Assembly: GCA_002633005.1 (NCBI GenBank) | Contig: NMRA01000624.1 | Location: 179,010-243,009 of the forward strand | Source: Phoronis australis | Lineage: Eukaryota > Animalia > Phoronida | DNA length: 64,000 nt | Direction: 5' to 3' | Shown: piece by piece, positions 396 through 64,000 of the stretch | Layout of the letters: each line of letters starts with the position of its first letter | Numbering within the stretch: the stretch's first letter is position 1 | Translations under genes and position numbers: made by a program | Notes under the pieces: generated by a model | Databases searched by the model: none | Seen by the model: the letters and a program-made list of their open reading frames with translations, nothing else | What the model was told of the DNA's origin: nothing

Positions 396-3300
396 TCAAA
401 TGTGTAAGCTTCTCATTCGGCAAAGCAGGTCAGTATACTAAAACGAATACTTCTGTTGTAATAGATAAGGCAAAGAAGTCAGGCTAAATTTCGGCAATAA
501 AATTTGACCGTTACAAAGCAAATCATTATATGCCCTTTATTCAACTAAAGTTCAAATCTGCAGGGTTTCTTTGGGGGGATAAATGGAAACGACGTTTAGT
601 CAAACTGTCTACCATCTACTCATTGTACCCTTGATTTAGACTAAGTTCATGTTACTTTGGGTGTACATGTATATCAAGCCTAGTAACCCCAAGAAATATA
701 CAGAGGAGACTTACAAATTAAAAATCGTTACTCCCTTAATTTATTCAAAGTTCAATCTACAAGAGGAAACAAACACGACTTAGGGGCATGCATTTTACAA
801 ATACAAAATACACCGTACGGTATTTTCAATTTGTAAAATTCCTGCAAAGGTACGTGTATGTAATAAAGTCAACCAGCAAGCCAACAGACTTTACTATAGA
901 CGCACAATGAAAAGATCATCATGCAAAAGGGCCATGAATTCCTACACACACCCAGAACAAAAGACGTCAATTATGTTTAGTTCGTGTAACAAAAACAATC
1001 AAAGGTACATATTAAGCCCAGTAACCCCAGTCTACCCTTGCTAATACCCGATATATCTTCGTCACAGAACTCTTTACCTTGATCTCTCTAAATTAAAAGA
1101 TAGCGTTAATTCAATAGCGCAACCGCATTGATAGCCGATCCCACGGGGAACTAGGTCGCAAGCTTGTCGCATAGATAACGATACAGAGATGTATCCATTG
1201 TTCGCTTTGTTTGTTTACTTATAATTAAGATAATAAAAATAATCGATAACGGGCTGATTAGCTCCTCAGGTGCAATGTTTGTGTCTAACAAAGACACAAC
1301 AAAGGAAAACAATGGAAGTGTCCCCTAGGCGACAACCATACTACGCGCTTGTCGCATGGATCTCGCAAATTAAACAATACCTTGCGATATTCATACAAGG
1401 TCATGATTCTTTGTCAAAGAGCTATGTCGTTGAATCAATCTAGATTTATAAGACAGTTGTAATCCAATAGAGAAATTTGGTTAATAGCGGATAAAACTTC
1501 GTCCGGGAAGGCTTTCCTTCGATTTAGCTAGATTAGAAGAAAGCGCTATTTCGCTAACTAAAGAACGGATATGCCTTCGTCTGAGACTGAGAACTCTTTC
1601 CTTTGATCTATCTAGATTAGGAGATATTGCTACTTCAGTTTTATCTATAGATATTTCGACTGATTACGTCCACTTTGACCCGATGCCTTCATTTTTACTT
1701 GTTAAGTCCATTTTAACTCATGCAATTAATTTTCCCCCTTTTGTCATTCTTGAACCATTTTTCAATATAACATGTATTTTGAGAGGTGTTCCGCTATTAA
1801 TCGACCGTGTGCCCCAATAAAAAAAGTTTTGTTTCAATCATTCTGTTTGACTACAGCAATTACCTCGACAGGATGCAGTATGCAATAGGCACTTGCTCTA
1901 CTTTCTGTGTACATTTCTGCATTACGTTAAAGTCGTGGACAGGTGACAGATGTAAAAACACACTGCAGCATTAGCAGGGGTTTGGTATGATTACTCGGTT
2001 ATTGAATAAAATTTCTGAAATGTTAAGTTACAACTAGAGAATTGTTACTGCATATCGTTGTCAACCTTTGTGCGTTATGCGGAATTCACGAGACGGCTTG
2101 ACATCATGAAATGAATATCAGTCGGCATGATCTGTTGAAAGCGTCTTGTACAAGTACATGTAAATGTACATGTGCAACATTCTGCTGCTGCAATACACTA
2201 CGACATGTATATCCGTGGCAAACGAGGTAAACATGTCCACGTTACATACATTTATGTTAACAAGACATTGCATTTACATTGTTTAAAGCTTTTGCATATA
2301 GTTTCCGGAAGAACATCCAGTAAGCACCAGCTGCAATTGAATATCTGGTACATATTCTCGTTTCAGCTGCCACAATAACCGGGAAAAGTACATGTATGTA
2401 TTTTTGTGGGTTTAATCTTATTGTTATCAACTTCATAATGTCCTACACTTGTTTCCTTGCATAGGAGTAAGTTGGTTAATTACTAAGCTATACTTTCGAA
2501 TAGTATTTTGCTGTGCCATCAAATTTTTATTAATTCCTTGGCAGTTTGTACACAGCGTGCTCGGAGACTTGATTTCGCTGTCACTTAAAACAAAGCAATA
2601 CATGTTTTCACACCTAAAGCATATCTCTGAAATTATATTTTTATGTTGTGTGCATTAACATATAAACAGATTCCAAACCTTCGTCGTTGGTGTCGTCCTT
2701 TCCATCGATTATTAAATGTCTTCTGTCTAGATTCAAAGGTCTTCCATTTTGATGTCTATCATTACATGCCAATCATTGAGTGTGTTCATTATAAAATATT
2801 GTATCTGTTATCGGTAAAAATGTGTCATCAATTACCAAAGACACGTCAATAATCAAACGTCAAATTATGATCTCAAACGGAGACAGTTAACGAAAGATTG
2901 GATGAAAATAGATATCAAGTAAACGTCTGAATACCAATTGAATTGCATAAGCATACTGAATATTAACGTTTATCTAAATATCGTAATACATGTATGTCCA
3001 TTTGAACCATTATTTCCAGTTTGGTGGTGGGATCCATTTTCACCCATTATGTCCCTTATAACGGTAGCAACAATAATAATAATTACATCAAACTCACACA
3101 ATTTTGATTAAAATCCATATCCAAACAATGAAAAATCAACCACGGAATTCTTCATACATATAAGTGATGGAACTTCTCAAGTAGTTTTTTCAAGACTTAA
3201 GTGAATGTGGTGCTAAGGGGATCTCGAGGCTATTTTAAGTTTGTGACAAATTTCCAATGATTTAAGGTTATTTTACTCTGAGGTGACGCTAAGGAGGCTT

Positions 3301-3449
3301 CGAGTAAGTGGATTTATGTGTATAGTGAATGAGATGCTACGATCAGATGACCTCGGGCAAGTTGCCACGGGGTCCAAAATGTATGACTGGGAGCGAACTC
3401 TAATTCAATGACTTTTTGGATGTACTGATCAACTGATTACGTTTTACAG

Positions 3450-3584
3450 CACCTCGACCGTGTGTAAATAAAGTCGCCACACATGTATGTGCTACTTTCG
3501 TACACTGGAAACTCTGCAATTACTTTAAAAGTTGGGCAAGTGACCACTGCGAAGCTTACTGCGGTTTTTGCGTAGGACCTATAG
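3450..3584 (+). CDS. ShKT-like exon A (phase 1-1)
   Basis: ttttacag|...|gtaagt; translates PRPCVNKVATHVCATFVHWKLCNYFKSWASDHCEAYCGFCVGPI; six Cys ending CxxxCxxC; 135 nt. Confidence 0.85.
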
Positions 3585-6500
3585 GTAAGTGTGTAAAGAT
3601 CACAAGGCTTGGGAAATGAAAATGAATCTTGATATACTGTACCTTTGTTAATATTTGAACCGATGACAAATTTAGCAGTAATCAGCCATTGCCAAGTGTT
3701 CCATACATGTATATACTAGTATTCGTTTTGTGTTAATGAAGTGTTTCCCTACATGTATTAGCCACATGCTGCTAAGTTTTACTCATTCATTTATGTAAAG
3801 GTTGGCGTTCTTTATACAGCTGCATTCCTTCTTCAGGACGCAGTAACATGCATTGTCAGTGCTACAATAATACGCGACCTTCCTTAATGACACCTCAGAT
3901 GAGATGTTCAGTCATACTCCACTTGTGCAGTAATACTTAACCAGCGCTAAGGAATAACAGGCAACTTTCCAATTCAGTGACGAAGTGTCGCAAATTAGTA
4001 CATTACTAATTGAATTGGACCTGAGCTAAACAAGCGTTTTGTCGACTCAAAACCTATGTTTAAGGATAAGGATAATTTCGAGCGGTTGTTTTTTTCTTTT
4101 AAGTGGCTGTTTGTTCGAACAGCGCAATTTTGTTTAGTCAATCTAATTGATCATATCACAATCAATTAGTGCATTATGCGTTGCATCGGCAGTGTTTAGA
4201 TGCAATAAGATGATAAATTAATAAAGATTTTGATTTAGCTTAGAGCATATTCTTGTTCCAGAATTAGGTTTATTATTCCAAAGCGATTGTTCGTCCAGCT
4301 TGTTCCGCAATAGTCCGCCATCCACATTTTAACTGCCCCGGTACTTTGCGATTTGCACTCAGCAAGTCACAATCCTCATCTATTTGATGCTGTAAATACA
4401 AACACAACATATGCATGTTGTACGTATTTACCTAAACATCATTCAAGAATGAATAGACTCACCGGAGACAGCCCAAGGGTTATTACATTATTTCTGCGGC
4501 GAAGGATTGTGTCTCCGATGAGTTGCCAGCAATCACTGGTACGGTGCGCAGCTTTAGACGCTCTGCGGCTGGGTTAAATGAATTTTATAGGCCTAATTAT
4601 CCCCAATTCCCGAAATAGATAAATGCAACCACTGTGGTAATAACCACAAGTCTTTAGAGTGCGACAACGTGGAGAAAGAACCGACCTGCGCCAACTGCGG
4701 TGGCCCCCACCCAGCAAACCGCAGGTCCTGCAGTCACTACACTGACTACAAAACTGCAACTATAACAAAGAAGCTGTCATACGCTCAGGCTGCTAAGAGC
4801 CCATCAAACGACCTATAGGTCCTAAGACTGGCTACGACGCTCACCGAGCTGGCGGTGGGTATAATGATAACAAAACTAGGGCTAGACTTCGGAAAGGAAG
4901 AAATCAGCCAGTTGATCGTTGATTCCATCAACACCAACTACAAAACAGATCTGATTGGCTCACGGATCCTCCAGCTGGTGAACAGACTGAAAATATACAG
5001 TATCTAAAGAGACACCTCAGGTTTCCGCCATGGCTAGCCTACTACACATTAACCTCAATGGGGCGAGAGGAAAACGGCAAACTCTAATAGAGCATCTTAC
5101 CGACGAAAAAACAGACGTAGTATCCATGAAAGAAACCTGGCTGTCCGACACCATCAAATTCACAATACCTGGCTACAGCTTTGTCCGGAGAGATCGCTCC
5201 GACCGCTCGGGCGGCGGGGTGGGCATCCTTGTCAGGCAAGGAGTTGATTTCACTCCCATAGACACAAATATGCTCAGAGCTGAAGTAGTTGCGGTTGAAT
5301 GCCGCGTCAACAGAAAAACTACTGCAGTCGTGTCAATCTACAATCCTCTAGGAAGCATTGTAGACAAGTACCTATTTAGGCACTTCACGAACTCCTATAA
5401 ACAGTGCATATGTATGGGCGATTTCAACTCCAAGCATCTGTTCTTCGGAAACAGAAAACTGACATAGCAGGCGAGATACTCTTCAACGCCGTATGAAACT
5501 CAGATCTCCACCTAGTCAACGACACTGGTGAGCCCACTTACCACCAGTGGACTGGCGCACGCCGCCAGATCCAACATCGCGAAGTCTTGGACTTCATATT
5601 CATTACCCGATCTCTACTCAGCTCAGTGCATGAATGCGAGGTTAGGACGACCTCATGAGTGACCACCTAGCGGTACACCTGAAACTAGACAACGCCAGAG
5701 GCCAGCTCGACTCCCTCCCACAAGCTTACATGCACTCATGTAAGAAAATGAATTGGCAACAATTTAAGTGGGATGTGGAGACTGACATAGAATGTACGTA
5801 GAGCCCAATCCGTACTCCAGCCGATATTGATCATGCCTCTCAAGCGTTAAGAAATGCTATAAACAACGCATTGGATAAAAACTGTACCATTGTGAAGATA
5901 CGCCCATTCACATGGCGGTGCTCAGCAGACACACTGATGCTTATCGGGATCAAACGCAAAATCAAGCGCAAGACCCAGGTTTACCCTGACAACCCGATCT
6001 ACTGTAACATCTACAATGTATTGAAAAGACGCGTCGAGAACGCTTTCAAACACGAGAAAAGGCAATCGTACATGCAATTCTGTGAGTCTCTAAATGAGGA
6101 AAGGGGTAAAGGTTTTTGGCAGGCTTTTAAGAGGATTACAGGCAGGGGCCCTCACAACCACCAGAGTGCAAAACCACTGATTCATGACAACAAAACTGCC
6201 TCCTTTAACTCAGACAAGGCCACAGTGTTTGCTACAGAATACCCACAGGATGCACGAAGGCCCGATCTTCTGCAATATGACAAAACGCCTCGTAGACTGT
6301 GCAAAGGTCCGAAAAGCACATCTGTTCAATACCCTTAACACAATTACGCAAGACTGCGGGGATGACCACGAAATGCTTTCTGAAATAAAGCCATTCGAGA
6401 TCAGGCGAAAACTTTCTAAGTGTAAGAAAAACAGCAGCCCAAGAAACGATTCCACATAACCTGGATTTGTCGTGACGACTTGATTGGGACCTCAGGGGTC

Positions 6501-9500
6501 TCACGCTCCACCGGATTATCTACACTAACTTGAAAAGGTTTCGTCCAGTCACGCGTTGTGGGTCATAAATCGAGATAATGATACCCACAGCTGACGCGAC
6601 AAGCAGAACTACTTTCGTTTACTTCATTGGTGCACTAACTGGAGAAATTTAGAATCAGACGTTTAAACAATATCCGATCGTCAACTTTATTCGGGAGACT
6701 TAAATCTCAATGTAGTTTACGCAAAGACGATGCGCGATTTTTAGAGGTGTATTGACGATGATCAACTACGAACTTATTTGCTCTCCGTTTTAAAGTTGAT
6801 CATCGTCAATACACTTCTAAAAATCGCAAATGGTCTTTGCGCAAACTACATTGAGATTTAAGTCTCCCGAAAAAAGTTGACGATCGGATAGTGTTTAAAA
6901 GTCTAATTCTAAATTTCTCCAGTTAGTGCACCAATGAAGTAAACGAAAGTAGTTCTGCTTGTCGCGTCAGCTGTTGGTATCATTATCTCGATGTATGACC
7001 TACAACGCGTGACTGGACAAAGCCTTTTCAAATTAGTGTAGATAAGCTGATGGAGCGTGAGACCCCGAGATCCCAATCGAGTCCTCACGACAACTCCACG
7101 TTATGACCAAGGTTTGGGCACTGCGCTACTGGTAACTGTTCTGAAGGGGTGACGGGGCAGTTTAAAGACAACGGAAAAAAACTGTCCCGACGGGGCAGTA
7201 TAAAGACAAACATGTAGTAGCATGACAGCTGTTGCCAATAAGCCGGATTCATGCGAATCAAAATCTATGCTGACTCTATTAAGCCAGCTTCACACCTAAG
7301 ATGTCAATAATACTGTTGCCATCCAGCCAGCTTCTCGTCTCCACAAGAAGAACACCACCACCACCACCAGCCTACCAGGTCCTGCCGCTCGATCCACGTT
7401 CACACCAACCACAGCAAAGACAGAAGGCGAGATCCACCGATCTTGCGAAGCTGTCCGCGGGCTTCGCCCTCATCTACTCTACTGTCTCTCTTCAATAACA
7501 TATACCAAGCACTTCCAGAACAAGTTGTTGCATGTCAATCTGGGAGTACATAGCGTTTCTCGTTTTAACTGTGACTGTAGCACTTCCACTGGTTCTATGC
7601 ATGTATGATGACATCGACACCAATAAATGCCAATATTATACCACCAACATTTTCATAAGTCAATTGGTAATATGAGCCGTAAATGCCTCTCAACAGGTCT
7701 GATCCTTTCACGTAAATCTGCGCGCATGATCGTCAAGCCGTTCACAGTCTCAGTAGATAGATAGACAGACAGATTGATGGATAGATACATGTAGATAGGT
7801 AGATAGATATATAGATAGATAGATAGATTGGTAGTTTATTTAGCCATTCATAATACAAATAGTCTTGCATCTAAGCAAGTCTTTTTCCTACTTGAGAAGA
7901 ACAACATAAAGTGAAAAGAGTGGGACTTGTAGTAGTCGAAGGCAAACAACTAAACTAAGGTTTTACTAGGACTGCATGTACATGTATAATAGTCGTTGAT
8001 TACTTTAGAAATTTCAAAACAAGGCAAGGAGATTTTCAAAAGGCTAAGGAGCCGCATGCATAAAAGCCACCTCTATCTTCACGTGTAGTTAGTCAAGAAT
8101 AAACTAGGTATTCGTTTCAACAATTTATCTCACTACATGTTAGAAACATAAACCTGAGTTGAGTATCAACAATATGATTATATATCTAATTAAAATGTGT
8201 ACATGTACAAGGAATAAAACTACCGATCCAATAATGGGAGAAACTAAAATAAGGTAGAGATTAAGAAAGATCGCTTAGGTAAGTAGAGGTGAAATGCTCT
8301 AGGAGCACACTGATTGCGGACCAGTAAGGTAGTCATAATCACCAACTGCAATCGTAGAAACAAATGTTTGTGCTTTAATTAATGAAAATATTATCTGGAA
8401 ATAAGTTGAATTACATACCAATGAGAGCCTACCATATCATTTTGACCTCATCATGCCAGATCAAAATGTCTTAATCCCGTCCATAGGTGGCGCACTCAGG
8501 TTGCTGGGGGGCTATAACCACACTTTTCCATTGCTGTGCCGCCCATGTCATCACGATCGTAAATTGCTGTAAAATATCATTAGTTGTTGCTTTTAGCTGA
8601 CGTAAGCATAGACCTGACGACGGTTTTGAGGGCGAGACAAGCATTGGTTGACCTCAATGGATTAGGCCGGTCGACACGTCTTTGCCATGTAGCCGGTTGA
8701 TTTAGGGAAATCTAGGGGAAATAATTGTATCCATTGGTGTCAATATCAACAAACAGAACTAGTGAACGTGTTACAATACCATTTAAAACGTGTGACACAA
8801 ATTACTCCCAGCTTTGCATGTTTGGAAATGTTCCCGGAGTGGCTGGTGGATGGTATTATTAAACACTTCTGTTAATAATAATACATGATTGAGCGACCAA
8901 TAAGCGTACCGATGGTTTTAATTTGATTTTCCAGGGAATGGTGAATACCATAAGACAGGAGACGTGGATGCAGTTATGAACGCAGCAAAAGTGGAAAACA
9001 AAGCTGATTTGTTGAATCTTTCCTTGATTACAATCGCATTAGCTAACGGCGCAGCCACGATCTTTCTACGTACTCTGTAGAAACCAATTTTGTGACTTCC
9101 AATCCCAGGTTTTTAGTTCCATGTACTAATCAACAACGTATTAAATGCTGAGTCTGAATTACCAAAATAGGAAATATAATCTCTGCAATTTGAAAGCCTT
9201 CCTTCATGAGAAGACGTGGAAAAAAGAGTGTATTCTCAAGTCGTCTTTTACATGCAGGTAGTTGAGTTCAACCTATAATCAACTATACAGTACCAATGGC
9301 CTCTTCGTTTCAAACGTAGACAAGCTCTGATGGAACCTAGCTGCATTACGAAATATTTTAACAATGATCCCTGAAACGTGGCCACTTGCTCAATCTTTAG
9401 TTTACTTGAGGAAACCTGGAATTCCATGTTTATGTCCATCTTCTAACGAAGCCCATACACTGCACCTCAACCATCTGAACCATAGGCGTATCTAGGGGTA

Positions 9501-12500
9501 TCAAGGGGTCTGGATTCCCCGGTTTCCTTTGATTTCAGTGATATTGAATCTAGAATTGTTGACACGGACCCCCGCTTTCTAAAAAATCCTAAGTTGATCC
9601 GACCCCCCGCTTTTAAAATTCTCGATCCGCCCCCGTAAACAATTCTATAAAGCATGTTGCCAGCTTCAAAACATAGTCTACCTGTGTTGACCAACTGCTA
9701 AATGCATGGTGATAATACCTCCCAGTAAACATGACAGTATTGGCCCAGTACTGGATATCTGTTGCTTGATAACGCTTGTACCCTATACCGGTTTACCTTT
9801 TTGGGACACTAATGGCCGAGTACCGTCCAACGACACTAACCCAGTGAACCCTTCCCTTACCGGGTCGCCGATGTTGGCCCAATATCGCTTGACCGGTAAT
9901 CACAGACTTGAACACAAGATGGCACCCTGAGGCTTGCCCACAGGTGGGTCAGGCTTACTATTTTAACGATAAAAACGTTTAAGTTTTCTTTAAAAAATTT
10001 TCAATTTTCATAAAAATACTTAATTACCAGCAGATGTATCACAGTATAATTTCATTTTTTAAAGAAAAATTTCCACCAGATGACCCTCATGAAAATACCG
10101 CCAATTTGAAATTTCCGTTGAAGAACTCTTGAGTTGTTTAGAGATTTTCTACAGTTTGAAACCAGCGTGTGTAACAGAATAGTGAAGGATTTTCACAGTG
10201 ATCTTCAGATTTCTGGTAAGTTTCATATTTGTTTACTTTGCATGCCATGCCAATGTCTTTAAGAGGATACAAAACATGATTTATACCACAGATGTTCTCT
10301 GATCGTCTCCAATACAAATTGGGTCTACATTGTACAATGTACTACAGGATATGACTCGGGATTCGCCCATTTCACTTACACAAAACAGGGGTTCAACAAA
10401 CCATGAGCAATATTTCTTTCTCCTGGTAGCATTTACGGTGTCCTGCTCCAGCCACAGCCACAAGTGTCCTCAGCTTCTGATCGTCCCCTGCGGTCCTACA
10501 CACTACATTATAGTTCGGTGAGCAAACCGAAATACAAATTTCATCAGAAGTACTTGAAAAGAGTGTTAAATGAGAGCTTTAGACATGCCATTGATACAAG
10601 TTTTTGAAATTTTCAAATTCATGGTTGGGCGGTTCTCCAGTTATTTAAATTTCAGAGCCTCAAAAATGGCCTTTTTTAGCTAACAGCACCCTGAAATTTC
10701 AGGCCACAGAAAATGGCAAGCTTAGACAACTATAGCATGGTAATTGTTTACAATATGACAGCATTGACTTACGCATACATGTATGATTTTGGTATCGTTT
10801 GATTCCTTGCAAAGTTATCTTTCCAAAAATACACAGGGAATTTCCCTACCCCGTTCCCTTAGTATTTTATCGTGAAATTTCTTCTCGCACTATTCCCCGG
10901 TACTCGGTAGTATTTGAATGGAAGGAGTCCCCTGGCGGTCAAAAACTGAACTTATCATACGCGACTTCTGCTGATCGTCACTTTTCAGAAGTTCAAACTG
11001 ACCGAGACCTGCCTACCCCCTGCCTCAGTTACGGACCCAAGGGTTCGAATTCGATCCTATAGCTACCCTAGTACGCATCTGCTAGTAAGAATCCGCGACA
11101 AAAGCGATGGTTGTTTTTGAGGTCCGAATTGGTGAAAAGGGTATCACTTTAGACAATTTCGTGGAAAATGATCAAATGGTCAATCATTAAAAAATTAGAA
11201 AAGGTGAAATGCTGCTACTTCTCATCCATATTATGTCAGGAAAACTTTAGTGGGAATCTCGGCGCAGGCAAACACCATTCAGAATATATGATGCTGTTTC
11301 ATTCATGAACAACAGGTAACGCTGACATGGCGGTGTCAACCGGGAAATAGTGCGAACCGAAATTCGAGAATAAAATACGGAAGAAACGCGGTAGGGGAAA
11401 CATTTATACATTTTTGGAAAGATAACGCTGCGAGAAATTGAACGATACCAAAATCATGTGTGTTGGCCAATGTCGTCATATTGTAAACAATTACCAATAA
11501 TATGTAGGAAACCATAGCTTACTGTGTTCCTAAAACAAGGAAGTCTTTTACAAGCAGGTTAAGAAGATGGGATCGACACCAAACTACTTGTGACAGGACA
11601 TTTTTACCCCTGAAGCTAAACTGAAAAAGTGGTGTTTTAAAAAGAGAGCAACTTAGTACCTTGAAAATGGCAAAACACTTCAAGAAGACTCTATCCTCAA
11701 AACTGAAGTTAATTTGAATTTTTAAAATATTCTACTCTATTTTAACGAAAATATTTCACCAGTTTGAGCCACTTTGGTAATTAATAGAACATATGACCAA
11801 TTCGGTTCGAGTTTAGGTTGAACCCTGGAAAGGTCAACATGGTTCTTGATTTCGTTAAGTTCTATGCACATTTGAGTAGAAAATACTGAGCAAACCATTA
11901 TGTCTTATTATGTAGCCCAGTGAATGACCTCATTGGTGATCGAAGAACAGATAAACTCAAGTGTCTGCCAGTTTCGCGCCAGCATGACTCTATTTGACTT
12001 GTTTAAAGTATCATAACAAAGAATATTTCTGGCTAAGCAATTGAAAATAGCTCCTGAGCATCAGTTTTCATGAACCACCTGCTAGTATAGAAAAATTGAG
12101 AACATTGCGAGGCTGAGACACAGACTCTAAGGATGTGTGCATTGGGGGGGTTCCTCTTTGATTGAATATTTTGTTTATTAGCGTAACTCTTTTTAAGGCT
12201 TTCTACATAGAATTAGTTAAGTACAGAGTTTACATACCTGATCTAGGGATGAAGTGAACTTGAAAATTTGCTTCTGTAACCTGTTGCTCCCATGCAAAAG
12301 GGGTTGCTTTACTTAAGTTTGAATTCGACCTCTGAAACTGTGCTGTGGGGCTTTAAAGATGGTTATGAACTTCCATCTATTTTATATGCTCATTTTACAT
12401 GTTCTATCTCATTTTAGTTGTTTCACAACGAAACTCCAAATGCCCAAATATCACAATCCAAAACAATGCAGGCTATTGGTAATCTTGTGAAACGTAAACA

Positions 12501-15500
12501 ATCCCCTTTTTGTTGCTGTGTTTACTTCTTTGACAACATCGCTGACCTTGTGCACGCGCGGCATCATTCAATAGATGGGGCATTCAGCCTCGTCTCCAGC
12601 CTCAACATGGTGCTGATCAGTTAAAGTATTTGAGGATTGGTAATGGGAAATGAAATGTGTCAGAATTTTTACAGAAATTGCCGGAATGGCACACGTAATT
12701 TCAAAAATTTCTGCAGTTTTCAAAATAAAACTAATGGTATATTGTAGCAATTTAGATCCAAATTATTGCAAAAATGATGTATTTTGATTCAAAAACAGGT
12801 TAATACTATTCATAAATAAGAATTGAAAAAAGCGCAACCTTTATATTCAGACAATAAGTAAAACAATGCCTTCTGTCTCACGAATGGCTGCAATGTGAAA
12901 ATAATTACCATCTGACCTTGTTCAATGACGTCAAGGCATCGGTCAATCGTGCAGAAAGTAATTCCCATAACCAAGCCTCAAATGGCTAAACCCATAAGCG
13001 TTGAAAAGGTCACATCAGTGTCACAATTGTGTGTAAACACAGTGCAAAACCATCAATTGATGCTCATAAGACTTTTTGTAACACATTGTGAAGTATTTTT
13101 TAGGAATTTCAAAATGGTAACAAAATAGAAATTTTTGGAAGAAATGGAATGAATATAAAGTCGCTATTCTTCTGAAAATATTTATTACAAGAAACTGAAG
13201 TCCTACAACCAGCTCTAATACTTGTGTTAGGAAAGGATGAAACATTTATATCTTGCAGATTATACATTTCAAATAAGTTTCATGTTGGAATGGTATGCAG
13301 TGTCTAGGTAATTCTTATTATGCATAACTTATCTGGAAAATGTATAGTTGAGTCTTTGAGTTTGTACTCTAAGCTACTAAGCAGGGTTTGTTTTATTTCA
13401 GGGATTGTGATCAAGGTGCACAGTAATACTAATGCAAGCTTTATAGTAAAAGAGGCACCATGCTCCGAAACGCTGGAGACAGGGAGGGAGGGCGAAGACT
13501 GTTTGAAGCTGCCAGTCCACTAATAAGCCTGGGACAGTTTTGTAAAAAATAATTACCGGTAGTTGCTTAGTTGTCATTTATATAATTCATAATTTTTTGT
13601 AAGTATTTTACCTGAGCAGTTTCACAGTAACAAATGTATTAAAGAACAAGAGTCTTTCCTTCATGTAAGTCGCAGCTGCACATGCAATACCCACAAACAT
13701 TAATATTCCTGCATTCGGCCTGTAAAGGCACCACAAGTGGTTCAACATTGGCACTGTACTGGTCCACCACTGTACTTTCGTCTATGTAATTTGTGTACTG
13801 GCTTAATATGAGCCCATCAAAGGCCCTGTACTGTGCCAACACAGTCTGTCAATACTGGCCCTTTACAGGGCCGAAACCGGTTATTGGTGTACTGGCCCAG
13901 TAATGGCGTGGTACTGGTCCTTTACTGGCTCGATATCGCAATCTAGTACCGGGGCCAATACGTATTTTCACATTTTTATCATTTGCTTTGTGTTATATAC
14001 TTCTTTACAATATATCTCGTATAACATTGGAGTAACCATGCCAAATGACGTCGTACGGATGTCGCAATATATTGCTTAATTTACATGTATGAGATCTATG
14101 CGACGGGCGTGAACGTGTTGAATGGTTATCGCTTATGGAACACTTTCATTGTTTTCCTATTTGTTCGACGTAACAATACAGGTTGCTTGGATATTGCAGA
14201 TTTGGCGCATGTCAACCCGTTACCCATTAATGCTTGCTGATATATTTATGAAAAGAAAGAAAAACAAAGTGAACAATGGAAACAGCTATCTATCGATATC
14301 TATTCGACGCGCTTGCCATATAGTTTACCTTGGGTTTATGTTTTTTAGTTAACAGTTTGTTTTTAAACGGTATTTACTGAATAAATTACATACATATAAA
14401 GTTCCTCTCACTCTCCCAAACAGTAGTTTAAATCTACCATTCACTGTTCAAAGAGCAGACAAGATGATTACACTTTTTCGGGACCGACACTTGTAACGTT
14501 GGTACATGTAGCTCTTTGATTTGATGTGGTCGCTTTATGCTTTATGTTTTTGTTTCCAAACTTGCTGAAACGACTTTTTAAGTACATAAAAGCAGAGAAA
14601 ATCCAGCTTAGCTCATGGTCCGAGTCTCTGGTCCTGCAACCTAGATGGAGTCGAGTTTGTATAGCCTGCGTCTACATGTTGTGGGGCGTGGGTCGAAGGG
14701 GTCGTGTACCGTGGGTCGATGGTCGAGACGGTTGTTGGTCGAGGGGGTTGCAGGGTGCGGGGGTCGAGTGGGTCAAAGGGGTTTCAGAATAAATGAGTTT
14801 TCGACTGGAAAACAGGTGGTGTCTGCTCTTCGTGGAATTACGTGGGATGACGGCGCTACACATTCAAAACTCCGCAAACCCATACGCTTACGATAAAGCA
14901 ATGAACCTTCCCCAGCTGCTTTCTCACCCAGTGGTGACTATACATCGACGAAAAAAAGCCGAACTGTTCAGATGTAACCTGCCCAACCTCTAAAAATCCT
15001 CTAATGTCCCTCCTGATCTGGACATGGCTACCTCCATTCCTTTGCAGACGTCCTGTAATGCTGCCATATAATAATGAAGTGGCCAATCACAGGTACGACA
15101 TATTGATAACCAGATTTCTCCACTGCACACAGTTTAAACCTTGCCGTCAAAAGATATCTGTAATCTTAGTTTCATACAGTCCAAATAACTACATGTCATA
15201 ACAATCACTAAAGTGAAAAAAAATGTTTAATAAATTGCGAGGTGGTATATTCCTTAATTCTCAAAAATTTCAATGTAATTTTCAAATGTCCTGTCAATCA
15301 AATGTATCGTGTCAAACTCTTCCATGCTCTTGATTCTATTGTTGGCGTCAACTCAATTTAGCACACCTTACCTAATAATCAATTTTCATTTTAGTCTTAT
15401 GGGTCGCATCAACTTAATTTGGATATGAGTATGTTTAATAGATATAATATCCACTTTAATTTATACTGTAACAGCAAATTCTATTTTAGCTACAATACTC

Positions 15501-21500: not shown

Positions 21501-21811
21501 CCGTTTGATTATTACTCAATATGAGTTCTAGATAGAAAGGTGCTGGCAATTAACAAAGGCATGTCTATGATCACACACCAAGCAAAGAATTCAAAGGGAA
21601 ACAGTCAACGAAAATTCAAATCAAAACAAGTATCAATAAACGTATTCTCATCTAAGGCATAAATTCAGTGGACTGCACGATATTACAGTTTATTAATCGT
21701 CTATTCGGAGATTGTAATACGTCCAATTTGACTCACTATTTTCATTTTCATGACTATGTTCATTTTCAACATCTATGTTCATTATAACTGTATAAAAGCA
21801 ATAAAGAGAGC

Positions 21812-21857
<46 letters not shown>

Positions 21858-54800: not shown

Positions 54801-57800
54801 ACTATTTCAACCTATGTGGAAACTATTTTCACCTGGGTGGAAATTATTTCAAACTAGGTGAAAACTATTTTCACCCGGGTGGAAACTATTTCAACCTAGG
54901 TGGAAATTATTTTCGCCTGGGTGGAAATTGTTTTCACCCAGGTGGAAATTATTTTCACCTGGGTCCGAACTATTTCGACCGAGGTGGAAATTATTTTCAC
55001 CTGGGTGGAAATTATTCTCACCCGGCTGGAAATTATTTTCCCCCGGCTGGAAATTATTTCAACCTAGGTGGAAATTGTTTTCACCCGGGTGAAAATAGTA
55101 TTCACCTAGGTTGAAATAATTTCCACGCAGGTGAAGATAGTTTCCACCCGTGTGAAAATAGTTTCCACCCGAATGAAAATAGTTTCCACCTAGGTTGAAA
55201 TAGTTTCCACCCAGGTGAAAATAATTTCCACCTAGGTTGAAATATTTCTTCCTAGGTGGAAAAGGAAAAATAGAAAATTAATAAGCTAAAATAGCGATGA
55301 TACTTTCGGGCCACCGTAGATAAAGGATATATGTTGAACACATTAGAAAATTAATGAGATTGTCACTGTCTCTTACATGTAACAGTGTTCAAAGAAATCT
55401 ACCTTACTGTATGTGTCTTGCCACCATAATGAATCATTTTCCACAATCAAATTCAATCACAGGGAAACTTCAAGAAAAAGAAAGGTTGAAAACCTCTCCC
55501 AGTTCCAAATATTCAATAATAAATGGGTCTGGCTACCTATTCTTAATTCGTTATTTATGGTAAATAATCTTTAGTTTAGGCCAGAGAAAAAAATCTTACT
55601 TGATAATTTTGCAGTACTAGCTGTCGCAATCTAAAAGGTACTGTTAGTAGTTTTTCCTGCACGTGAGTGAACTGCTAAGCCTATTTTCAGCCTCTTTTAT
55701 GTGAAAACATGAGCATTGTTTAAAATTTGGGAAATATAAAAAATGGAAATATTGCCCGTGCTCTGTAATTCATAAATGTCGAAAATTCAAATGTTGTTCA
55801 GATTTCAGTATCTCACAATTTTGAAGATTCTTGGATTGGAGAATTTTTAGCGTAGTAACATTTTTACAATTCCAATTATGTGCTATTTAAAACAGGGAGC
55901 GTCAAAAGAAATTTAGCTCTACGGTAAATAAGACGCTATTCAATTTCAAACAAAAATACACGTATTGCCAACATGACCATTCATTTATTTTCAGATGGGC
56001 TGAACTATAGTATTAAGGATGATAAAAATGTTTCTATGTTTCAAATTGTTTGAAGGCAACTGTACAGTGCAATCAATGCTAGTAATGATGCTTATTTTGC
56101 TGAACACTTAGATAATATGAAATTTCACCTGTTGGTCACACTGTGGGCTAAAGTGAAAAGCATTTTGGTTATGTGTTTCAGTTAAAAGGATTACTGTAAC
56201 AAGGTGTTTAGATGAAACGGCATTCAGGTTGACAACGATTTGCTATTTCCGGTACGGTGCACGCTTGCAGACATACATGTATTTTTTAAAGTTTACCATT
56301 AAAGTTGGGCTCGACATTTGTGTTTCCTGGTCAACTCAAGGAAGACATTGAACTATTTGTATGTAAGATACACTGTATAAGGCGACTGATTATCAACAGT
56401 TAACAAAGCACGCTACCACATATTCAGGTTGAAATTTGTAATGAAATCATCTCTGCCTCCTAATCATGATTGTTTGCTGTTACATGCTAAAAGAGCAAAC
56501 TACCACTTTGCCATTTACAAACGAGCCTTGCAACAGCATGTCAGTGCACCATCTTCAGTTGGTAATGGGTGGCTTTTGGAACAGGGTAGTCAGAAGTTCC
56601 ACTGGATGACTTTGTCTAGAAAATGTTATTGGACAGTGTATAGGAAGTGGGAAAATGTGCTCTTGTTTGAAGTTGGGAATTCCATAATTACTGTCGAGAT
56701 TATGTAAACACGGTGTTTCAAGAAACATCTTTTGATGACAATAATGATGATATAAATGATGATGGAGTGGATGAAAATAACATAAGTGTGGGCTATATTG
56801 TTAAAGAACTTGATTTTTGGTAGCCTGATAGAAAGAAACATTTTATCGTGCTGGTAACTATCGATGAAGTCAGATTTTTGAGGTCACATTTCTCGAAAAC
56901 GTGCAAGACAAACCTTGGGATTATTTAAATTATAGTGCTTAATGACATTAAAGCACCAAAAATATCTTGCCCTCAAAAAAGTAACCACGGAAGTATATTT
57001 CTAAGCTTCTTAGAGTCCAAGGACAATGGCATATGACGGCGAATTTAGGACCACTCCGACTATCGATGTGCCCTTAGTGGTAATTTTAGTTTTTTTACGC
57101 TTACCTTTGTATCTTCTGAAGACCTCAGCGGATTTCCAAAAAAAATTAACTGTTGGTTAGGTATTAGTGAGATGGCGCTATCTTCCTGTTTGCGGGTGGA
57201 TTCGAGGTACTTTTCGCCACGGGGTGGCTAATTTTACTGTTTTAGTTTGCTAATCTATCAACCAAACCGCTCAGGTAATGATTGGGAAATTTGACTATTT
57301 GTTTTACTTTGAACAGGATGGCTGAGGATGACCTTCCGACTTCGGCTACTGCGGTGCCTCTTAGGGGCAGTTTTGTTTGTTTTTGGACCCATGACTGTAA
57401 CTCCCGGCTACTAAACGCTCTACTGGATTTTTACTAAATTTTGCCATCCGGCGTATTTATACGAAGTTGAACACGGACGACGACAATTTTCGGACGAATC
57501 GAACTGCAGGTGTGCCCCCTAGTGGCAATTTTTAATATGGAAAATAGGCATCTATTAGTGGGGTAACGTTATTCTCCGGTCTTCGGTTTGATGCGTGGTA
57601 TTTTGTGCCACCTAGAGGCCATTTTTACTGCTCTCAAGTATGTTGGCGTCTATCTTCTGTCAACATAACCATTCTAAGGATTGTTGTGGAAATTGGCATA
57701 ATACTATATGTTCCCTAATATAAAGAAGAGGACTGATAATGGTTCATACTATAAATGTGTTTAAAAGTTCAAAGCTTTGTTATTTTTAATCCAAATTTTC

Positions 57801-60800: not shown

Positions 60801-62312
60801 AACAGTTTATATCTCGTTCAAGCCGGTTTATACTTCACCACCGATGTCTAAATTCCTTAGACCTGCACTTGATCATAAACCAGGTTTAACTTTGGACGTG
60901 ATCAGATTCAGTTTAATACGGTTGACTTCTGCGGTGTAGAGTTGCTCAAACGTACAGTACAGTTGAGAGACCATTTAGGGTGTGTCGCCGACTTCAGAAT
61001 GGACCACGTTCAGTTTTACGTGAGCGATAAACTTGAAAAATCGGTTCCGAATGACAACACTGGCAACAGACTTCATAAAAGTGGCGCTAGGTCAACCAGT
61101 GCAACTAACCTTGAGGAAGCAGAGTACAACGTCAGAACTGAAAGTGTTATTTACGATTCTATACAACCGGTAGCTAATCATACTTTATTTAATTTTGAAA
61201 GTTTGTTTTCAGTCGCATTACAAAACATGCAGGCCCTGTTGCAACTGTCCTAATTGATGATATAATCAAACTGCATAATATGATCAGTGACTGCCGAGCT
61301 GTGACACACTGACTGAGAAGCCCGTTTCTGGTTACGGGACGGTGTTCCTCAGACTCTGTATCGTCGTGATGTTTGAAAAGACGAGTCCCGAGTTCGATCC
61401 CTACCAGTCCCAATTATATAAGTGCGGCTCACACCGCAAGGTACATGTATCTGATAAACCACACCGGTGTTATCCACAAAACTACATTTGTCCTTGACAT
61501 GCACAACAAAACTTCTGAGCCTCCTGACTGGTTTAGTAGCACTATTTTTTTTTTTAATTGCAGGCGGTCTGATACACGTTGTATCAGACGTGCGCAGGCC
61601 TCGCATGTGGGCCCATTGCACTGATCNGGCTCAAAGGTTTAGCAGTGTGACCTGGTGGGACTTGAACCCACGACCTCGAGTAAAGAAAGCGGGCACTTAT
61701 CAACCAGGCCACACTGCCTCCTCTAGTAGCACTAGAAGTGTTATAGGATTTCATCGCAGAGGAGTGCCTGCGTGTTGTGATGCCGCGACTTGTTAGCACT
61801 GCCGCGGGTTGATTGTGTTTTGAGACTCCCTGTTAAATTGTTATGGAGTCCCAGATATCAAATCTATCCAAACACAGTTGAAGACACATACACTGTACGT
61901 GTACATATACTGTATGAACATAATGTATATGCATGTACAGTGTATTCGTGTATAGTGTGGAACCATCTAAGTCTTTCGGTAGAGTGATTTTGCTATCCCG
62001 TTTTCGACGTGAGGCCTTCTTTGCTGCAATTCTTTCACTTTGTACATGTAATTGTGATGTTTACTGACTCGTTGAGACAACAATTACAAAGAATTGCACG
62101 ATGTGTTATCAAGAAGATCATTAGGTATCCAGGCAGTAGCGCGGTGTATCACTTCCTCAAAGCATAGCATTACAATAGGTTTGTTGCTATTTTAGTATTC
62201 TGCAAATCAGCAAAAAAGCCGCCACACTGTACTGAACCCGACTTCCTGGATACGTGTGGCAAATACGGCTCTACACCGTTGCAATGTCCATTTATGTGCA
62301 ACGTTTGCCCCT
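3450..62312 (+). CDS. Spliced gene model (partial): (ShKT)x6-7 - linker - CAP/SCP - EGF-like - ShKT; cysteine-rich venom/secretory-protein-like (Tex31/Mr30-like)
   Basis: 16 AG/GT-bounded exons joined by hand with compatible phases and no stop: 3450-3584, 19959-20099, 22161-22301, 23999-24136, 30909-31049, 35850-35993, 42071-42211, 43081-43101, 46592-46708, 47937-48025, 48502-48586, 49288-49430, 51710-51798, 52604-52683, 59735-59845, 62196-62312 (1833 nt). No ATG/signal-peptide exon or stop exon identified. Membership of exon A is uncertain. Confidence 0.75.
4440..7503 (+). mobile_element. Degenerate, internally deleted non-LTR retrotransposon (I/Jockey group LINE)
   Basis: ORF1 remnant 4621-5007 with gag-like zinc knuckles (CNHCGNNHKSLEC, CANCGGPHPA...C), an SYAQAAK motif and a premature TAG at 4816-4818. 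ORF2 from ATG 5030 encodes an APE endonuclease (INLNG, ETWL, GGGV, IYNP, GDFN, SDH), with frameshifted linker to KNSSPRND at about 6450. RT core absent; C-rich 3' tail about 7300-7500. Confidence 0.88.
6455..7105. mobile_element. Foldback/MITE: near-perfect 650-bp palindrome inserted in the LINE
   Basis: Arms 6455-6767 and 6794-7105 (about 312 bp) are reverse complements with scattered mismatches; 26-bp loop; termini CATAAC...GTTATG; no perfect TSD (TCCA vs ACCA). Confidence 0.9.
7504..9010. repeat. Diverged copy of 62969-64000 (interrupted by an insertion at about 7750-8290)
   Basis: Collinear matches: accaagcacttcc.gaacaa, tgcctctcaac, ttgcggaccagtaag, ccatatcattttgacctcatca, gagcgacc.ataagcg.accg, gcaaaagtgga.aac. 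Confidence 0.85.
7753..7828. repeat. (TAGA)n microsatellite
   Basis: Imperfect tagataga run. Confidence 0.9.
9481..9635. mobile_element. Short GC-rich MITE (GGCG(G/T)ATCTAG...GATCCGCC type)
   Basis: Imperfect terminal inverted repeats cataggcgtatctag / ctcgatccgcccccg; related sequence at 58726; no clear TSD. Confidence 0.45.
9721..13965. mobile_element. Possible non-autonomous CACTA/EnSpm-like element (CCCAG terminus) with internal inverted repeats
   Basis: Left end cccagtaaacatgacagtattggcccagtact; inverted, reiterated gtactggccc / ggggccaatac motifs at 13750-13962; internal IR pair 10739-10768 and 11466-11495; right terminus degraded. Confidence 0.4.
14742..19512. repeat. Near-identical 2.38-kb tandem duplication joined by a single N (probable haplotype/assembly artefact)
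   Basis: 14742-17125 and 17127-19512 differ only by scattered substitutions and 1-2 bp indels; N at 17126 exactly at the junction; duplicated ORF-track entries. Confidence 0.9.
19959..20099 (+). CDS. ShKT-like exon B (phase 1-1)
   Basis: ttttacag|...|gtactg; SRPCLDKLEDCSSHGDVDTLCTKYKGWSIVNCEAYCGFCKRPSTTT; 141 nt. Confidence 0.85.
21812..21922. repeat. (AAT)n microsatellite followed by (AGC/AGT)n
   Basis: Direct reading; shorter AAT runs occur at the equivalent position of paralogous introns (about 3073, 23750, 30405). Confidence 0.92.
22161..22301 (+). CDS. ShKT-like exon C (phase 1-1)
   Basis: ttttacag|...|gtgagt; PKPCVDKVENCGSYGHVSTLCTRYRSWASVNCEAYCGFCIGRSTAT; 141 nt. Confidence 0.9.
22500..22925 (-). 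mobile_element. 5'-truncated non-LTR retrotransposon fragment encoding RNase H
   Basis: Minus strand gives AIVTDSQSMLR and, after a frameshift, FSPGHARVVGNKRADKVA (RNase HI TDS and PGHxGxxGNExAD motifs); stops and frameshifts present. Confidence 0.8.
23999..24136 (+). CDS. ShKT-like exon D (phase 1-1)
   Basis: tttacag|...|gtaagt; ARPCLNKADNCASYGSVDTLCTRYKSWASENCEAYCGFCIGQSTT; lies within ORF 23986..24243; 138 nt. Confidence 0.9.
24753..25190. mobile_element. MITE with about 35-bp TIRs (PIF/Harbinger-like)
   Basis: tgccgggttgcatgaaacagtcccaattagggactc vs gagtcccagtttgggactatttcattcaaccggca; TSD not clear. Confidence 0.55.
25355..25392. repeat. (CA)n microsatellite
   Basis: Direct reading. 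Confidence 0.85.
30909..31049 (+). CDS. ShKT-like exon E (phase 1-1)
   Basis: ttttgcag|...|gtgagg; PRPCVNKINNCASYGPASSLCLLYKSWASERCEAYCGFCVPPSTTT; 141 nt. Confidence 0.9.
33164..34067. mobile_element. About 110-bp Merlin-like MITE split by a solo LTR
   Basis: 8-bp TSD TGTTTAGT (33156-33163, 34068-34075); TIR GGCAATGGTCTGATATAACGTG / CACGTTCTGTCAGACTATTGCC; absent from the paralogous intron at about 1760-1800. Confidence 0.8.
33255..34043 (-). mobile_element. Solo LTR (789 bp)
   Basis: TGTCA...TGACA termini; 5-bp TSD GGCAC (33250-33254, 34044-34048); TATAAATA at about 33700 and AATAAA at about 33357 on the minus strand. Confidence 0.85.
35850..35993 (+). CDS. ShKT-like exon F (phase 1-1)
   Basis: ttttacag|...|gtaagt; PRPCVNKVDCASYGEVNTLCTEYRGWASDNCEAYCGFCVAPSTLPTK; 144 nt. 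Confidence 0.9.
40085..41643 (+). mobile_element. Non-autonomous Kolobok-like DNA transposon with degenerate THAP domain
   Basis: TTAA|AGGAGATTGCCACCC ... GGGTGGCTCTCTCCT|CTAA. ORF 40238..40480 reads CIVPAC...SFFRLP...VCSRYFVDSDF, a THAP pattern with the conserved W and H substituted. Flanks join into the paralogous pre-exon intron sequence. Confidence 0.75.
42071..42211 (+). CDS. ShKT-like exon G (phase 1-1), most divergent copy
   Basis: tttcatag|...|gtaagt; SRPCVDLKDNCDAYPDDMCTNHLYKGFARTNCEAFCGFCIGPSTTT; 141 nt. Confidence 0.9.
43081..43101 (+). CDS. 21-nt linker micro-exon (E-F-T-P-P-K-R)
   Basis: tttttgttccag|AATTCACACCTCCAAAAAGAA|gtaagt; strong acceptor and donor, length divisible by 3, phase 1-1 fits both neighbours. 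Confidence 0.65.
44081..44200. repeat. 12-bp minisatellite (TATCAGATACAG-like)
   Basis: About 8 imperfect units; explains the QYQIQHQ periodicity of ORF 43913..44182. Confidence 0.75.
46360..46387. repeat. (TA)n microsatellite
   Basis: Direct reading. Confidence 0.95.
46592..46708 (+). CDS. CAP protein N-terminal extension exon
   Basis: ttttttcaaatacag|...|gtaaat; phase-1 reading AVPLPQRPAGDCKDKFKYHFSGKHSACFARSSKHKAIT (C...HxxC pattern preceding invertebrate CAP domains). Confidence 0.8.
46855..47135. repeat. About 43-bp minisatellite, 6-7 diverged units
   Basis: Unit like GCTAATGACGTTTCGTCAAACTGATCGACGTTTGTCATCCTAA. Confidence 0.8.
47937..48025 (+). CDS. CAP domain exon 1 (CAP3 motif HNxxR)
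   Basis: polypyrimidine tract + cag|...|gtgaga; GVSDKNKKLIVSLHNKVRSEVSDAKFMLKM. Confidence 0.92.
48502..48586 (+). CDS. CAP domain exon 2
   Basis: tatag|...|gtaaat; RWDDEVAMVAQRWAEVCKFAHDSDRSIP (WDxxxAxxAQxWAxxCxFxH). Confidence 0.92.
49288..49430 (+). CDS. CAP domain exon 3 (GQNI, WxDE, GHYTQ)
   Basis: ttttag|...|gtcagt; GRFYVGQNIAYYSVRSTNWPFIIKLWADEKQYYTHGDKWNETFGHYTQ. Confidence 0.95.
51710..51798 (+). CDS. CAP domain exon 4 (IGC..., YVCNYxP, CAP2 motif)
   Basis: ttgcag|...|gtaagt; MVTAGTYLIGCGEAICEGIGHYYVCNYAPG. Confidence 0.93.
52604..52683 (+). CDS. CAP hinge exon
   Basis: ttgtag|...|gtaagg; phase 2-1; GMSRYPYPKGILGTACPAFIDNNNLC (PYxxG...CP...NLC). Confidence 0.88.
52867..57026 (+). 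mobile_element. Academ-like DNA transposon relic
   Basis: Imperfect TIRs tagtcc...ctccgtggctactttctgggggcaa / ttgccctcaaaaaagtaaccacggaag...ggacaa. Transposase C-terminal remnant 56429-56610 reads LPPNHDCLLLHAKRANYHFAIYKRAL..PSSVGNGW...W, matching the LPP...H.xRA.Y..W...GW motif, and is followed by an acidic tail remnant. Confidence 0.72.
54413..55318. mobile_element. 906-bp foldback DNA element filled with a 21-bp satellite
   Basis: 6-bp TSD GATAAA (54407-54412, 55319-55324); TIR TACG(A/G)TGGCCCGAAAGTATCATCGC; about 29 units of CACCTGGGTGGAAACTATTTT followed by about 8 inverted units, flipping near 55085. Confidence 0.9.
57068..57625. repeat. Diverged repeat with about 150-bp period carrying CTCF-like motifs
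   Basis: GTGCC(C/A)CCTAG(T/A)GG(C/T)AATTTT-like motif at about 57068, 57214, 57355, 57512 and 57605. Confidence 0.6.
58726..58963. mobile_element. GC-rich MITE-like insertion
   Basis: Starts cataggcggatttagggggg and ends ggccgcctgtg; resembles the 9481 element. Confidence 0.4.
59735..59845 (+). CDS. EGF-like exon
   Basis: tttacag|...|gtaagt; DCKEQFCYNGGDLDPETCKCKCSNFGVNNYKPEDNCK (CxNGG..CxCxC..Y....C). Confidence 0.9.
61640..61718 (-). mobile_element. tRNA-derived SINE head (pol III A/B boxes), truncated at a scaffold N
   Basis: Minus strand GTGGCCTGGTTGATAAG (A box) ... GGTTCAAGTCCC (B box); extra bases before the 3' acceptor strand and a poor anticodon arm; N at 61627. Confidence 0.55.
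62196..62312 (+). CDS. C-terminal ShKT/ICR-like exon
   Basis: ttttag|...|gtaagt; LFCKSAKKPPHCTEPDFLDTCGKYGSTPLQCPFMCNVCP (CPxMCxxC); donor shows the gene continues downstream. Confidence 0.88.
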
Positions 62313-62404
62313 GTAAGTATATTGCACATTTCAATATTAAGGGTACAAGTATCCCTATTTAAATGCACTTACACCATTAAGCCCTCGTAAAATACATGTA
62401 ATTT

Positions 62405-62427
62405 TGTGTGTGTGTGTGTGTGTGTGT
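62405..62427. repeat. (TG)n microsatellite ending at a scaffold N (62428)
   Basis: Direct reading. Confidence 0.95.
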
Positions 62428-64000
62428 NAACACCTTATTATTTTGAATTAGCTAATGCAAGAAAATATGAGACTTGAAACAGAGACCCACGAAAGTGTGC
62501 CAAAGCCCCATTATCTTCTTTTGCAAGCTTTTAAATTCATACCTGAGCACTGACTTCATTTGGTTCTGAAGGCAAAATTCGACTTCAAAGGTTCTAGTTG
62601 CGAAGAGATTCCGTGCAGGAGATACAGTTGCTCGAACAAAAGTCGCGTTGCAATGACTTACAATGTTTAAGCTCCGCATTGCGCCATTTTAACAATCTGC
62701 TGCACATGAGCTTCGCTTTTTGGAATGAGTAGCTCGTCATATAGTGGCTGCGAAAACATTACAGCATCCTGGCATATGCAATGATATCGATACTGAAGAA
62801 TTGTTTGTTTACTGGATGAGCTCGTTTCCATGTGTACACTTCATTTTTCTGACCAATAAGAAGACTGGTCTAAAGCGTGTTAGTAATGCTTTACCGCAGG
62901 CCTCATACAGTAAACGTTTGACGCGGTATTTCAATAACAAATATGACTGCTATCCAATGTGGTGACCCACCAAGCACTTCCTGAACAACTTGCTGCATGC
63001 CATCGGGAGCAATTAACGTTTCACGTTTTACCTGTGATGACACCAATAATCCAGTAGTACCACTTCAGGTTCATTCAATCTGTAAAATTAACCTGGTATG
63101 CCTCTCAACTAGCCAAGTCCATTCACTCAAACCTGCTTGCATGCTCGTGAGGCCGTTCACAACATCACCGGAAGTATGCTTGCGTAAGCTGAAGCAGAAT
63201 ACTCCGGGAGTACACTGTTTGCGGACCAGTAAGACAGGTCAACTTTTTCAGTGGCCTTCGAATTCCATTTGGTTTTGTCATAGTCAACAGGTGCCATTGA
63301 CTTATCGCAAGCTCCGCCCCCTTGCGAAATGTCGACAAACAAACAATAACTTTTACCCGGCAACGTGTTGTTTGTCGGGTAAAATGTCGACTTGTAAACC
63401 GAGGGTGTGTCAAGAATGCTGTATTCTGATTGGTCGGATAAGCCATCATTCACAATCCTGGCGATACATGTACTGTATGTCAATTGTAGATACACATGTA
63501 TGAGTTTTACTTACTGGAAAGATTATCTGTAAATAAGTCGAATTACATAAGAGAGCGAACCATATCATTTTGACCTCATCACAGCAGGTCAAGATTTGTT
63601 GATCTCTTCCCGATCGTGAATTACTGGCAGCATCGTCACCATGTGCTGCTTTTAGTTGACGTAAGCGTCTTGAAGGCCGAGCACAGGCTAGTTGAGACGT
63701 CTTTGCCATGTTGCCAGTTAATTTAGGGTGCCCATTTGTTTCAATATCAACATAACTAGCGAACGTGTTGCACTACTACATAATGTTAGGTGTGACGCAC
63801 ATTGCTCCCAGAATTACATGCTTTGAATTGCTTCGAGTGTCTTGTGGATGGCATTTGTATACCTTCTCTCAATTACAAGTGTATTGTTGAGCGACCGATA
63901 AGCGGACCGCTGGTTTTACTTTGATTTTCAAGGGGGTGGTGAGGACTATTCCCGAGGAGTGGTAGCTATGGACGAAGCAAAAGTGGATAACGGAGCTGAT

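Follow-up and report, generated by a model that had tools for sequence, protein, structure and literature searches.

During excision of Tc1/mariner transposons the non-transferred strand is described as being cut a few bases inside the element, leaving 3′ overhangs on the flanks, and the footprints of non-homologous end joining (NHEJ) as consisting of the first or last 2-4 bases of the element, with Sleeping Beauty leaving TACAGTA or TACTGTA (PMC6943129). The 3′ overhangs of Tc1 are given as two non-complementary bases (PMC4490562), and taCATGta has been cited, from Eide and Anderson 1988, as a rare Tc1 excision footprint of Caenorhabditis elegans (PMC3520976). In the worm germ line, Tc1 repair is reported to run mainly through polymerase theta with varied products (26 in 103 animals), and in worms without this polymerase one class, maybe formed by blunt ligation, accounted for 32 of 39 products (PMC4490562). 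Here we describe a stretch of 64,000 nucleotides from the phoronid Phoronis australis (contig NMRA01000624.1 of assembly GCA_002633005.1, positions 179,010 to 243,009; hereafter the window, whose own coordinates are used throughout, features having no strand unless one is given) that holds a field of the palindromic octamer TACATGTA, with 62 copies between positions 664 and 63472, accompanied by 32 TACAGTA/TACTGTA words and 15 TACA-N-TGTA words. These octamers are likely to be scars of the repair that followed when Tc1/mariner-type transposons, having landed at TA, were later excised.

The C. elegans Tc1 footprint is the same word as the window octamer, with TA on both sides and a CA and a TG attributable to the element; it is called rare in the worm by the account cited above, whereas in this window it is the commonest 8-mer, at about one copy per kilobase, and the 4-letter class is not enriched. 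The 7-letter words are likewise those of Sleeping Beauty, where they are ascribed to NHEJ of staggered cuts (PMC6943129), and here they stand as five-base additions at TA at 20101 and 42487. The Sleeping Beauty footprints described there come from experimental excision in cells and embryos, whereas those in the window form a minor class beside the 2+2 form and are inherited, being either fixed or segregating. Surveys of excision in rice similarly read DNA-transposon excisions, among them those of TA-targeting Mariner elements, from the comparison of homologous sequences, but the excisions they report are complex, varied and counted against a known occupied site (PMC4423477), whereas here one fixed word recurs and the element is out of view. 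The footprints themselves were already known, and what appears new from the sequence is their accumulation to one per kilobase; no pile-up of TACATGTA scars to the rank of commonest 8-mer was found in the literature searched, which was mostly non-subscription and excluded supplements, where repeat tables could bear on the point.

The first-pass annotation of this DNA, made by eye, had put the octamer at more than 40 copies against roughly 2 expected at about 37% GC. The full count exceeds that figure, the expectation stands (1.9-2.1 under Markov orders 0-2), and the GC content of this intron-rich DNA is in fact 39.1%. The excess is about 30-fold over 2-3 expected copies, and the octamer occupies about 0.6% of the sequence. 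Expectations from the unmasked sequence rise to 3.7 at order 3 and to 11.6, 32 and 54 at orders 4-6 because the motif feeds its own sub-words into the background; with the motif masked they fall to 1.6-2.8 (orders 1-4), and the enrichment therefore survives a higher-order background. A deduplicated set, without a satellite and with a 99%-identical tandem duplicate reduced to a single unit, has 60 copies in 60,710 bases, where order 2 predicts 2.2 and order 3 predicts 3.7. The duplicate, two 2.4-kb units at 14742-17125 and 17127-19512 that are 99.1% identical and have an N at their junction, doubles two motif copies and probably represents two haplotypes joined by the assembler. The enrichment is specific to the whole word: among the 16 kinds of TA-NNNN-TA palindrome, TATATATA reaches 18 copies and the 14 kinds besides these two have 0-4 copies each, while CATG with flanks other than TA occurs at most 6 times per word. 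Copies show a near-even distribution (variance/mean of 1.26 for 32 bins) with no block structure; none lies within 3758-7785. No 8- or 7-letter word overlaps an exon (13 exons, 1,623 bases), a weak result as about 2 would be expected at the window density. One-mismatch neighbours of the octamer number 77 against about 43 expected, an excess of about 34; as the perfect class, at 58, is larger, the process would seem to be young or still under way.

Filled and empty forms of the same site could be compared because the window carries seven duplicated exon-intron modules with ShK-type exons (3450..42211, + strand), which share 65-85% identity and have RNA depth; six of the seven exons match PF01549 at E<=0.05, two of them above the curated cut-off. 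A total of 56 self-matches on both strands were aligned and length was measured between anchors around each motif. An anchored homologue was available at 16 of the 62 octamer sites, and the copy with the motif was longer by five or six bases at 10 of these 16 sites (11 of 21 comparisons) and shorter by five or six at none, whereas the corresponding figures for TA-centred controls were 100 and 116 of 1,101 (p = 1.8e-7). A stricter initial pass gave +5/+6 in 6 of 10 comparisons; there the most frequent gap length was 6, with 14 gaps compared with 7 for length 4 and 7 for length 5, a peak to which in-frame exon gaps contribute. At the 7-letter words TACAGTA/TACTGTA, a gain of five bases at TA was seen at two of five alignable sites (20101 and 42487) and a loss of five at none.

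All three pairs in which the annotation had seen TA become TACATGTA were found where it placed them. The copy at 3704..3711 is a clean +6 against the empty TA at 36113-36114, that at 32308..32315 is a net +5, rather than +6, against the empty TA at 742-743, and that at 34628..34635 is a clean +6 at the site itself against TA at 2353-2354 (+7 across the anchors), although here the direction is uncertain and the difference may instead be a loss, since the filled form is matched in length by a third copy near 29292. Additional paralogs mark the sites 2987, 34152, 34746, 35535 and 20101 as gains, the scar at each being absent from 2-6 other copies. The gain at 2987..2994 has a decayed form in the closest sister, near 35310, and is missing in two more distant ones, with an empty TA near 21716; the gain at 34152..34159 is +5 against the copy at 1872, while a third copy near 27030 has an empty TA; the gain at 34746..34753 is +6 against 2468, where the empty site reads AA, and is also missing near 29407; and the gain at 35535..35542 is missing in four sister modules. 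A further copy at 10776..10783 lies in one arm of an inverted repeat and is +6 relative to the other arm. Empty sites read TA at 742, 2353, 21716, 36113, near 27030, at 25431 and at the sister donors of 20101.

A second line of evidence, independent of the core word, is the flanking sequence. Across 120 half-sites, A was found at position -3 in 76, a pyrimidine (Y) at -2 in 84 and a purine (R) at -1 in 89, whereas the background frequencies at other TA sites are 0.32, 0.49 and 0.51, respectively (p = 1e-12 for A at -3). The A bias persists when stacked half-sites are left out (60 of 104, p = 5e-9) and when YR is given (24 of 47, background 0.25, p = 1e-4). This A-Y-R signature on both flanks is close to the published target motifs, CAYATATRTG for Tc1 and RCAYATATRTGY for Sleeping Beauty (PMC2577343).

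Words related to the octamer are enriched as well. With the octamer masked, at order 3, TACAGTA/TACTGTA occur 29 times against 13.0 expected (2.2-fold), the 9-letter words TACAATGTA and TACACTGTA 7 and 6 times against 1.2 and 1.1, and TACAAGTGTA 3 times against 0.25; the small classes are suggestive only, as the words were chosen after scanning all TA-n-TA words. Stacked doubles number 5 against 0.7-1.5 expected (p = 0.001-0.02), a doubling of a unit that could also come from slippage. At 808-817 an older TACACTGTA-type word has a decayed 5-letter scar stacked on it, and at 27041-27049 the word TACAATGTA exceeds its paralog in length, a hint that gains account for the 9-letter words too. In the proposed mechanism, a transposon would insert at TA, duplicate the TA and later excise; the germ line would then fill in both 2-base overhangs and ligate them, giving TA-CA-TG-TA. 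Cuts of three bases on CAG ends would anneal to give TACAGTA/TACTGTA, and mixed 3+2 cuts would give TACAATGTA and TACACTGTA. Since the same octamer would be written by every family with CA at its start and TG at its end, convergence of many families on one word is likely; each scar moreover offers two new TA sites with a CATG or CATG-like half target, and scars therefore likely attract further landings. The first-pass interpretation of TACATGTA as Tc1/mariner excision footprints is thus supported by the gain in length, by flanks like those of Tc1 and Sleeping Beauty, by the series of words and by two segregating alleles. We infer both the identity of the transposase and a genome-wide extent of the scars.

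The segregating alleles were found by comparing two DNA runs from one sample and two RNA runs with 19601-27430, at a share of 55%. This region showed ten indels, comprising six of a single base, one TA unit, one loss of 11 bases and two of the scar type, so that scar-type alleles make up two of the three indels of at least three bases. One is at 25431..25432, an empty TA in the window, where a contig of run X2 (depth 6.9) has six bases added behind 25429 to give TACATGTA, with no copy of the neighbouring letters; the allele is not in run X3. The other is at 26502..26514, where the right TA of TACATGTA bears a further, stacked scar of five letters and TACTGTA type; these five letters are missing from a contig of run X3, so that at 26506 TACATGTA-CTGTA becomes TACATGTA. 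The two alleles are probably two haplotypes of one animal, and the sample may be the source of the window's assembly. By our estimate, holding one perfect octamer per kilobase against substitution would need about one new scar per 125 substitutions; about 0.4 scar alleles are predicted from the 33-47 substitutions on the listed contigs and 2 were seen, which is of the same order. A comparison at a 10% share, which is dominated by repeats and uninformative on single-copy indels, had none of the scar type among 12 of 56 indels listed. The annotation had placed the activity in the past; that is supported, and the activity is better described as past and probably recent.

A TACTGTA scar at 20101..20107 (+ strand) lies in the splice donor of a ShK-type exon and is missing in six sister modules; the intron spans 20100-22160. 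Among the joints listed, RNA reads from ungenotyped animals join 20099 to 22161 (16 and 8 reads), with use of the original GT, and use of the GT five bases downstream may also be possible. The join places the exon ending at 20099 and the exon starting at 22161 in one transcript. A scar in a GT-A splice donor recreates the GT, and such a scar can be silent.

The annotation had also stated that no Tc1 element is visible, which is true of the transposase and not of TA-flanked inverted-repeat elements, several of which are present. A high-copy non-coding element at 27210..28019 is a candidate scar donor with an imperfect terminal repeat, a right end GTG|TA and a family left end TA|CAC; the left end is mutated in the window, and 96% and 95% of the read depth differ from it, restoring TA|CAC. 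The family shows 120-142 loose ends per run with consensus ends ATATACAC or CATACAC (agreement about 0.5), and the sequence before its TA|CAC ends in ATATA or ACATA, an A-Y-A-TA half-site as at the scars. The second candidate, at 36943..37488, is likewise high-copy and non-coding, stands between two TA with ends CAT/ATT and an imperfect terminal repeat, and has TACATGTA at its right TA. These candidates thus begin TA|CAC and TA|CAT; they are unclassified and none is linked to a scar. An element at 54415..55316 with CG ends, intact TA on both sides and an interior of about 38 copies of a 21-bp quasi-palindromic satellite unit is TA-targeting, although its excision would not be expected to produce a scar with CATG. 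A 52-bp TA|CAC...GTG|TA hairpin at 61891..61942 is either a tiny element or a pile of scars. Among TA|CA...TG|TA pairs with matching ends up to 6 kb apart, the top matches were scar against scar or hairpin interiors, with no intact Tc1-like element. The right end of the 27210-28019 element, used as a query against metagenomes, gave three matches, none beyond 20 bases and none with a transposase-like long open reading frame by eye, consistent with chance. Nested high-copy repeats at 24750-25190, 27210-29058 and 32557-34070 have read depths that exceed single copy by factors of hundreds to thousands, and RNA reads on both strands.

Several observations weigh against excision of Tc1/mariner elements as the source. 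No transposase, including DD34E/D, was present among the open reading frames of the window, and no site was seen in all three states (empty, occupied and scarred). The 4-letter class TACATA/TATGTA is not enriched in the window (47 against 43-49), G is allowed at -1 (0.33) where the Tc1/Sleeping Beauty motif has A, and the window spectrum is sharp, whereas germ-line footprints of C. elegans are described as highly varied (PMC4490562). In the paralog comparisons, 46 of the 62 octamers have no alignable homologue, and the gain of five bases was seen in only two of the five alignable 7-mers. Empty sites read AA or CA at 2468, 3248, 11468, 1364 and 1872; part of this loss of TA would be expected at 20-30% divergence. 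At 35535 none of the four empty copies reads TA (the closest copy has AA), so a prior change to TA is needed. Measured across the anchors, six of the 16 alignable sites depart from +5/+6 (664, 2389, 20229, 20739, 34446 and 34628): at 664 and 2389 the counterpart of the motif is of equal length, and therefore some copies predate the duplication or arose by substitution, 20229 and 20739 are +2, and at 34446 the motif is common to the paralog. One of the ten +5/+6 gains, 3750 against 24327, rests on a poor alignment, with the closest paralog also +5. Finally, each segregating allele is one contig from one sample, that at 26506 with a depth of 3.3, below the caution level of 5, and short direct repeats flank both alleles, which could therefore be deletions.

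Scars or remnants of TA-targeting inverted-repeat elements could also have arisen by another route, through a different DDE superfamily whose elements carry CAC termini and duplicate two target bases or through transposase-free collapse of hairpins; this is unlikely but is the main alternative left open. Animal CMC/EnSpm-type elements have CAC ends and a 2-base target duplication, the candidate elements of the window are non-coding and unclassified with one beginning CAC, and the 52-bp TA|CAC...GTG|TA hairpin would fit the same description. Superfamilies that hairpin the flank, however, add letters derived from the flank and not from the element, and collapse of hairpins should leave a ladder of longer palindromes, whereas TACACGTGTA, TACAGCTGTA and TACAATTGTA have no copy each in the window; the flanks, moreover, match Tc1 and Sleeping Beauty.

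Replication slippage that converges on TACATGTA in tracts of alternating purines and pyrimidines is very improbable. Composite tracts do exist (five TACATGTACATGTA, and seven octamers with adjoining TATG/CATA), the flanks continue the alternation, and one of the segregating alleles lies beside an alternating tract (25337-25440). Yet in 9 of the 10 filled/empty pairs, as read by eye, the empty site has no CATG within three bases, 14 of the 16 alternating palindromes occur only 0-3 times, 48 of 60 copies stand more than 12 bases from the next, and the A bias at -3 survives conditioning on YR. Slippage as the origin is largely refuted, and it may have extended some stacked copies. The gain in length at 10 of 16 sites, taken with the want of a nearby CATG template, argues against an origin mainly by substitution or slippage, which the annotation had named as what would speak against its reading.

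There is still less to be said for the octamer as a selected transcription-factor site, of an Irx-type homeodomain or, as in Phytophthora, of Myb. In Phytophthora, TACATGTA (motif-1/AM-20) is an abundant upstream motif that has been cited as the preferred Irx site (PMC3520976) and is bound by PsMyb37 (PMC11134190); as in the window, it is very abundant in non-coding DNA. It is read there as a factor site, and PMC3520976 dismisses a footprint origin for its abundance and conservation. In the window, in contrast, the octamer is mostly copy-specific among paralogs and so is not conserved between homologous copies; copies arise as insertions, sit in repeats and in a splice donor and are spread nearly evenly, and selection gives no account of the 7- and 9-letter series. 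The window is silent on Phytophthora itself, but it shows that abundance alone does not rule out a scar origin, and later co-option of some scars is possible. A substitution sink fed by CpG deamination, for example of TACGCGTA or TACACGTA, is scarcely credible and is refuted as the main route by the gains in length: a same-length CpG-bearing variant in the paralog at 2389, a mild enrichment of TACACGTA/TACGTGTA (6 against 2.1) and the TA-flanked element with CG ends would fit it and it may explain single sites, but substitution cannot add 5-6 bases, the precursor TACGCGTA has no copy and the mirror product TATGCATA one, the CpG observed/expected ratio is 0.88, and CpG-poor bins are no richer in the motif (rho +0.24, p = 0.19, 32 bins).

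Besides these features, the window contains exons at 47937-62313 that resemble what we take to be a CAP/CRISP-type gene, although the single CAP/CRISP-like exons have no Pfam match; they are followed by a CXCXC-repeat exon (PF03128) and then by a cysteine-rich exon. At 4570-6450 and 6455-7105 lies a broken remnant resembling a long interspersed nuclear element, with an endonuclease domain (PF03372), into which a near-perfect hairpin element of 650 bp intrudes.

Normally the excision of a DNA transposon leaves nothing that can be counted, and turnover is judged from the few surviving copies. About 60 perfect scars, besides decayed and 7-letter ones, against at most four TA-flanked elements in 64 kb suggest many landings and departures per surviving copy. 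As a speculation that we consider doubtful, fill-in end joining in the germ line would make Tc1/mariner traffic a self-seeding form of mutation that writes Irx-type sites about every kilobase, at a rate within about 100-fold of point mutation, and supplies raw cis-regulatory sites genome-wide, the TACATGTA 'promoter motif' of Phytophthora then being the same scar, co-opted. As repair scars of Tc1/mariner-type excision, these words would make otherwise invisible transposon traffic countable, and their uniformity, in contrast to the varied products in the worm, would report which repair pathway the germ line uses. In such genomes, motif discovery would return TACATGTA as a false regulatory signal, and models of indels would miss a directed class of five- and six-base gains.

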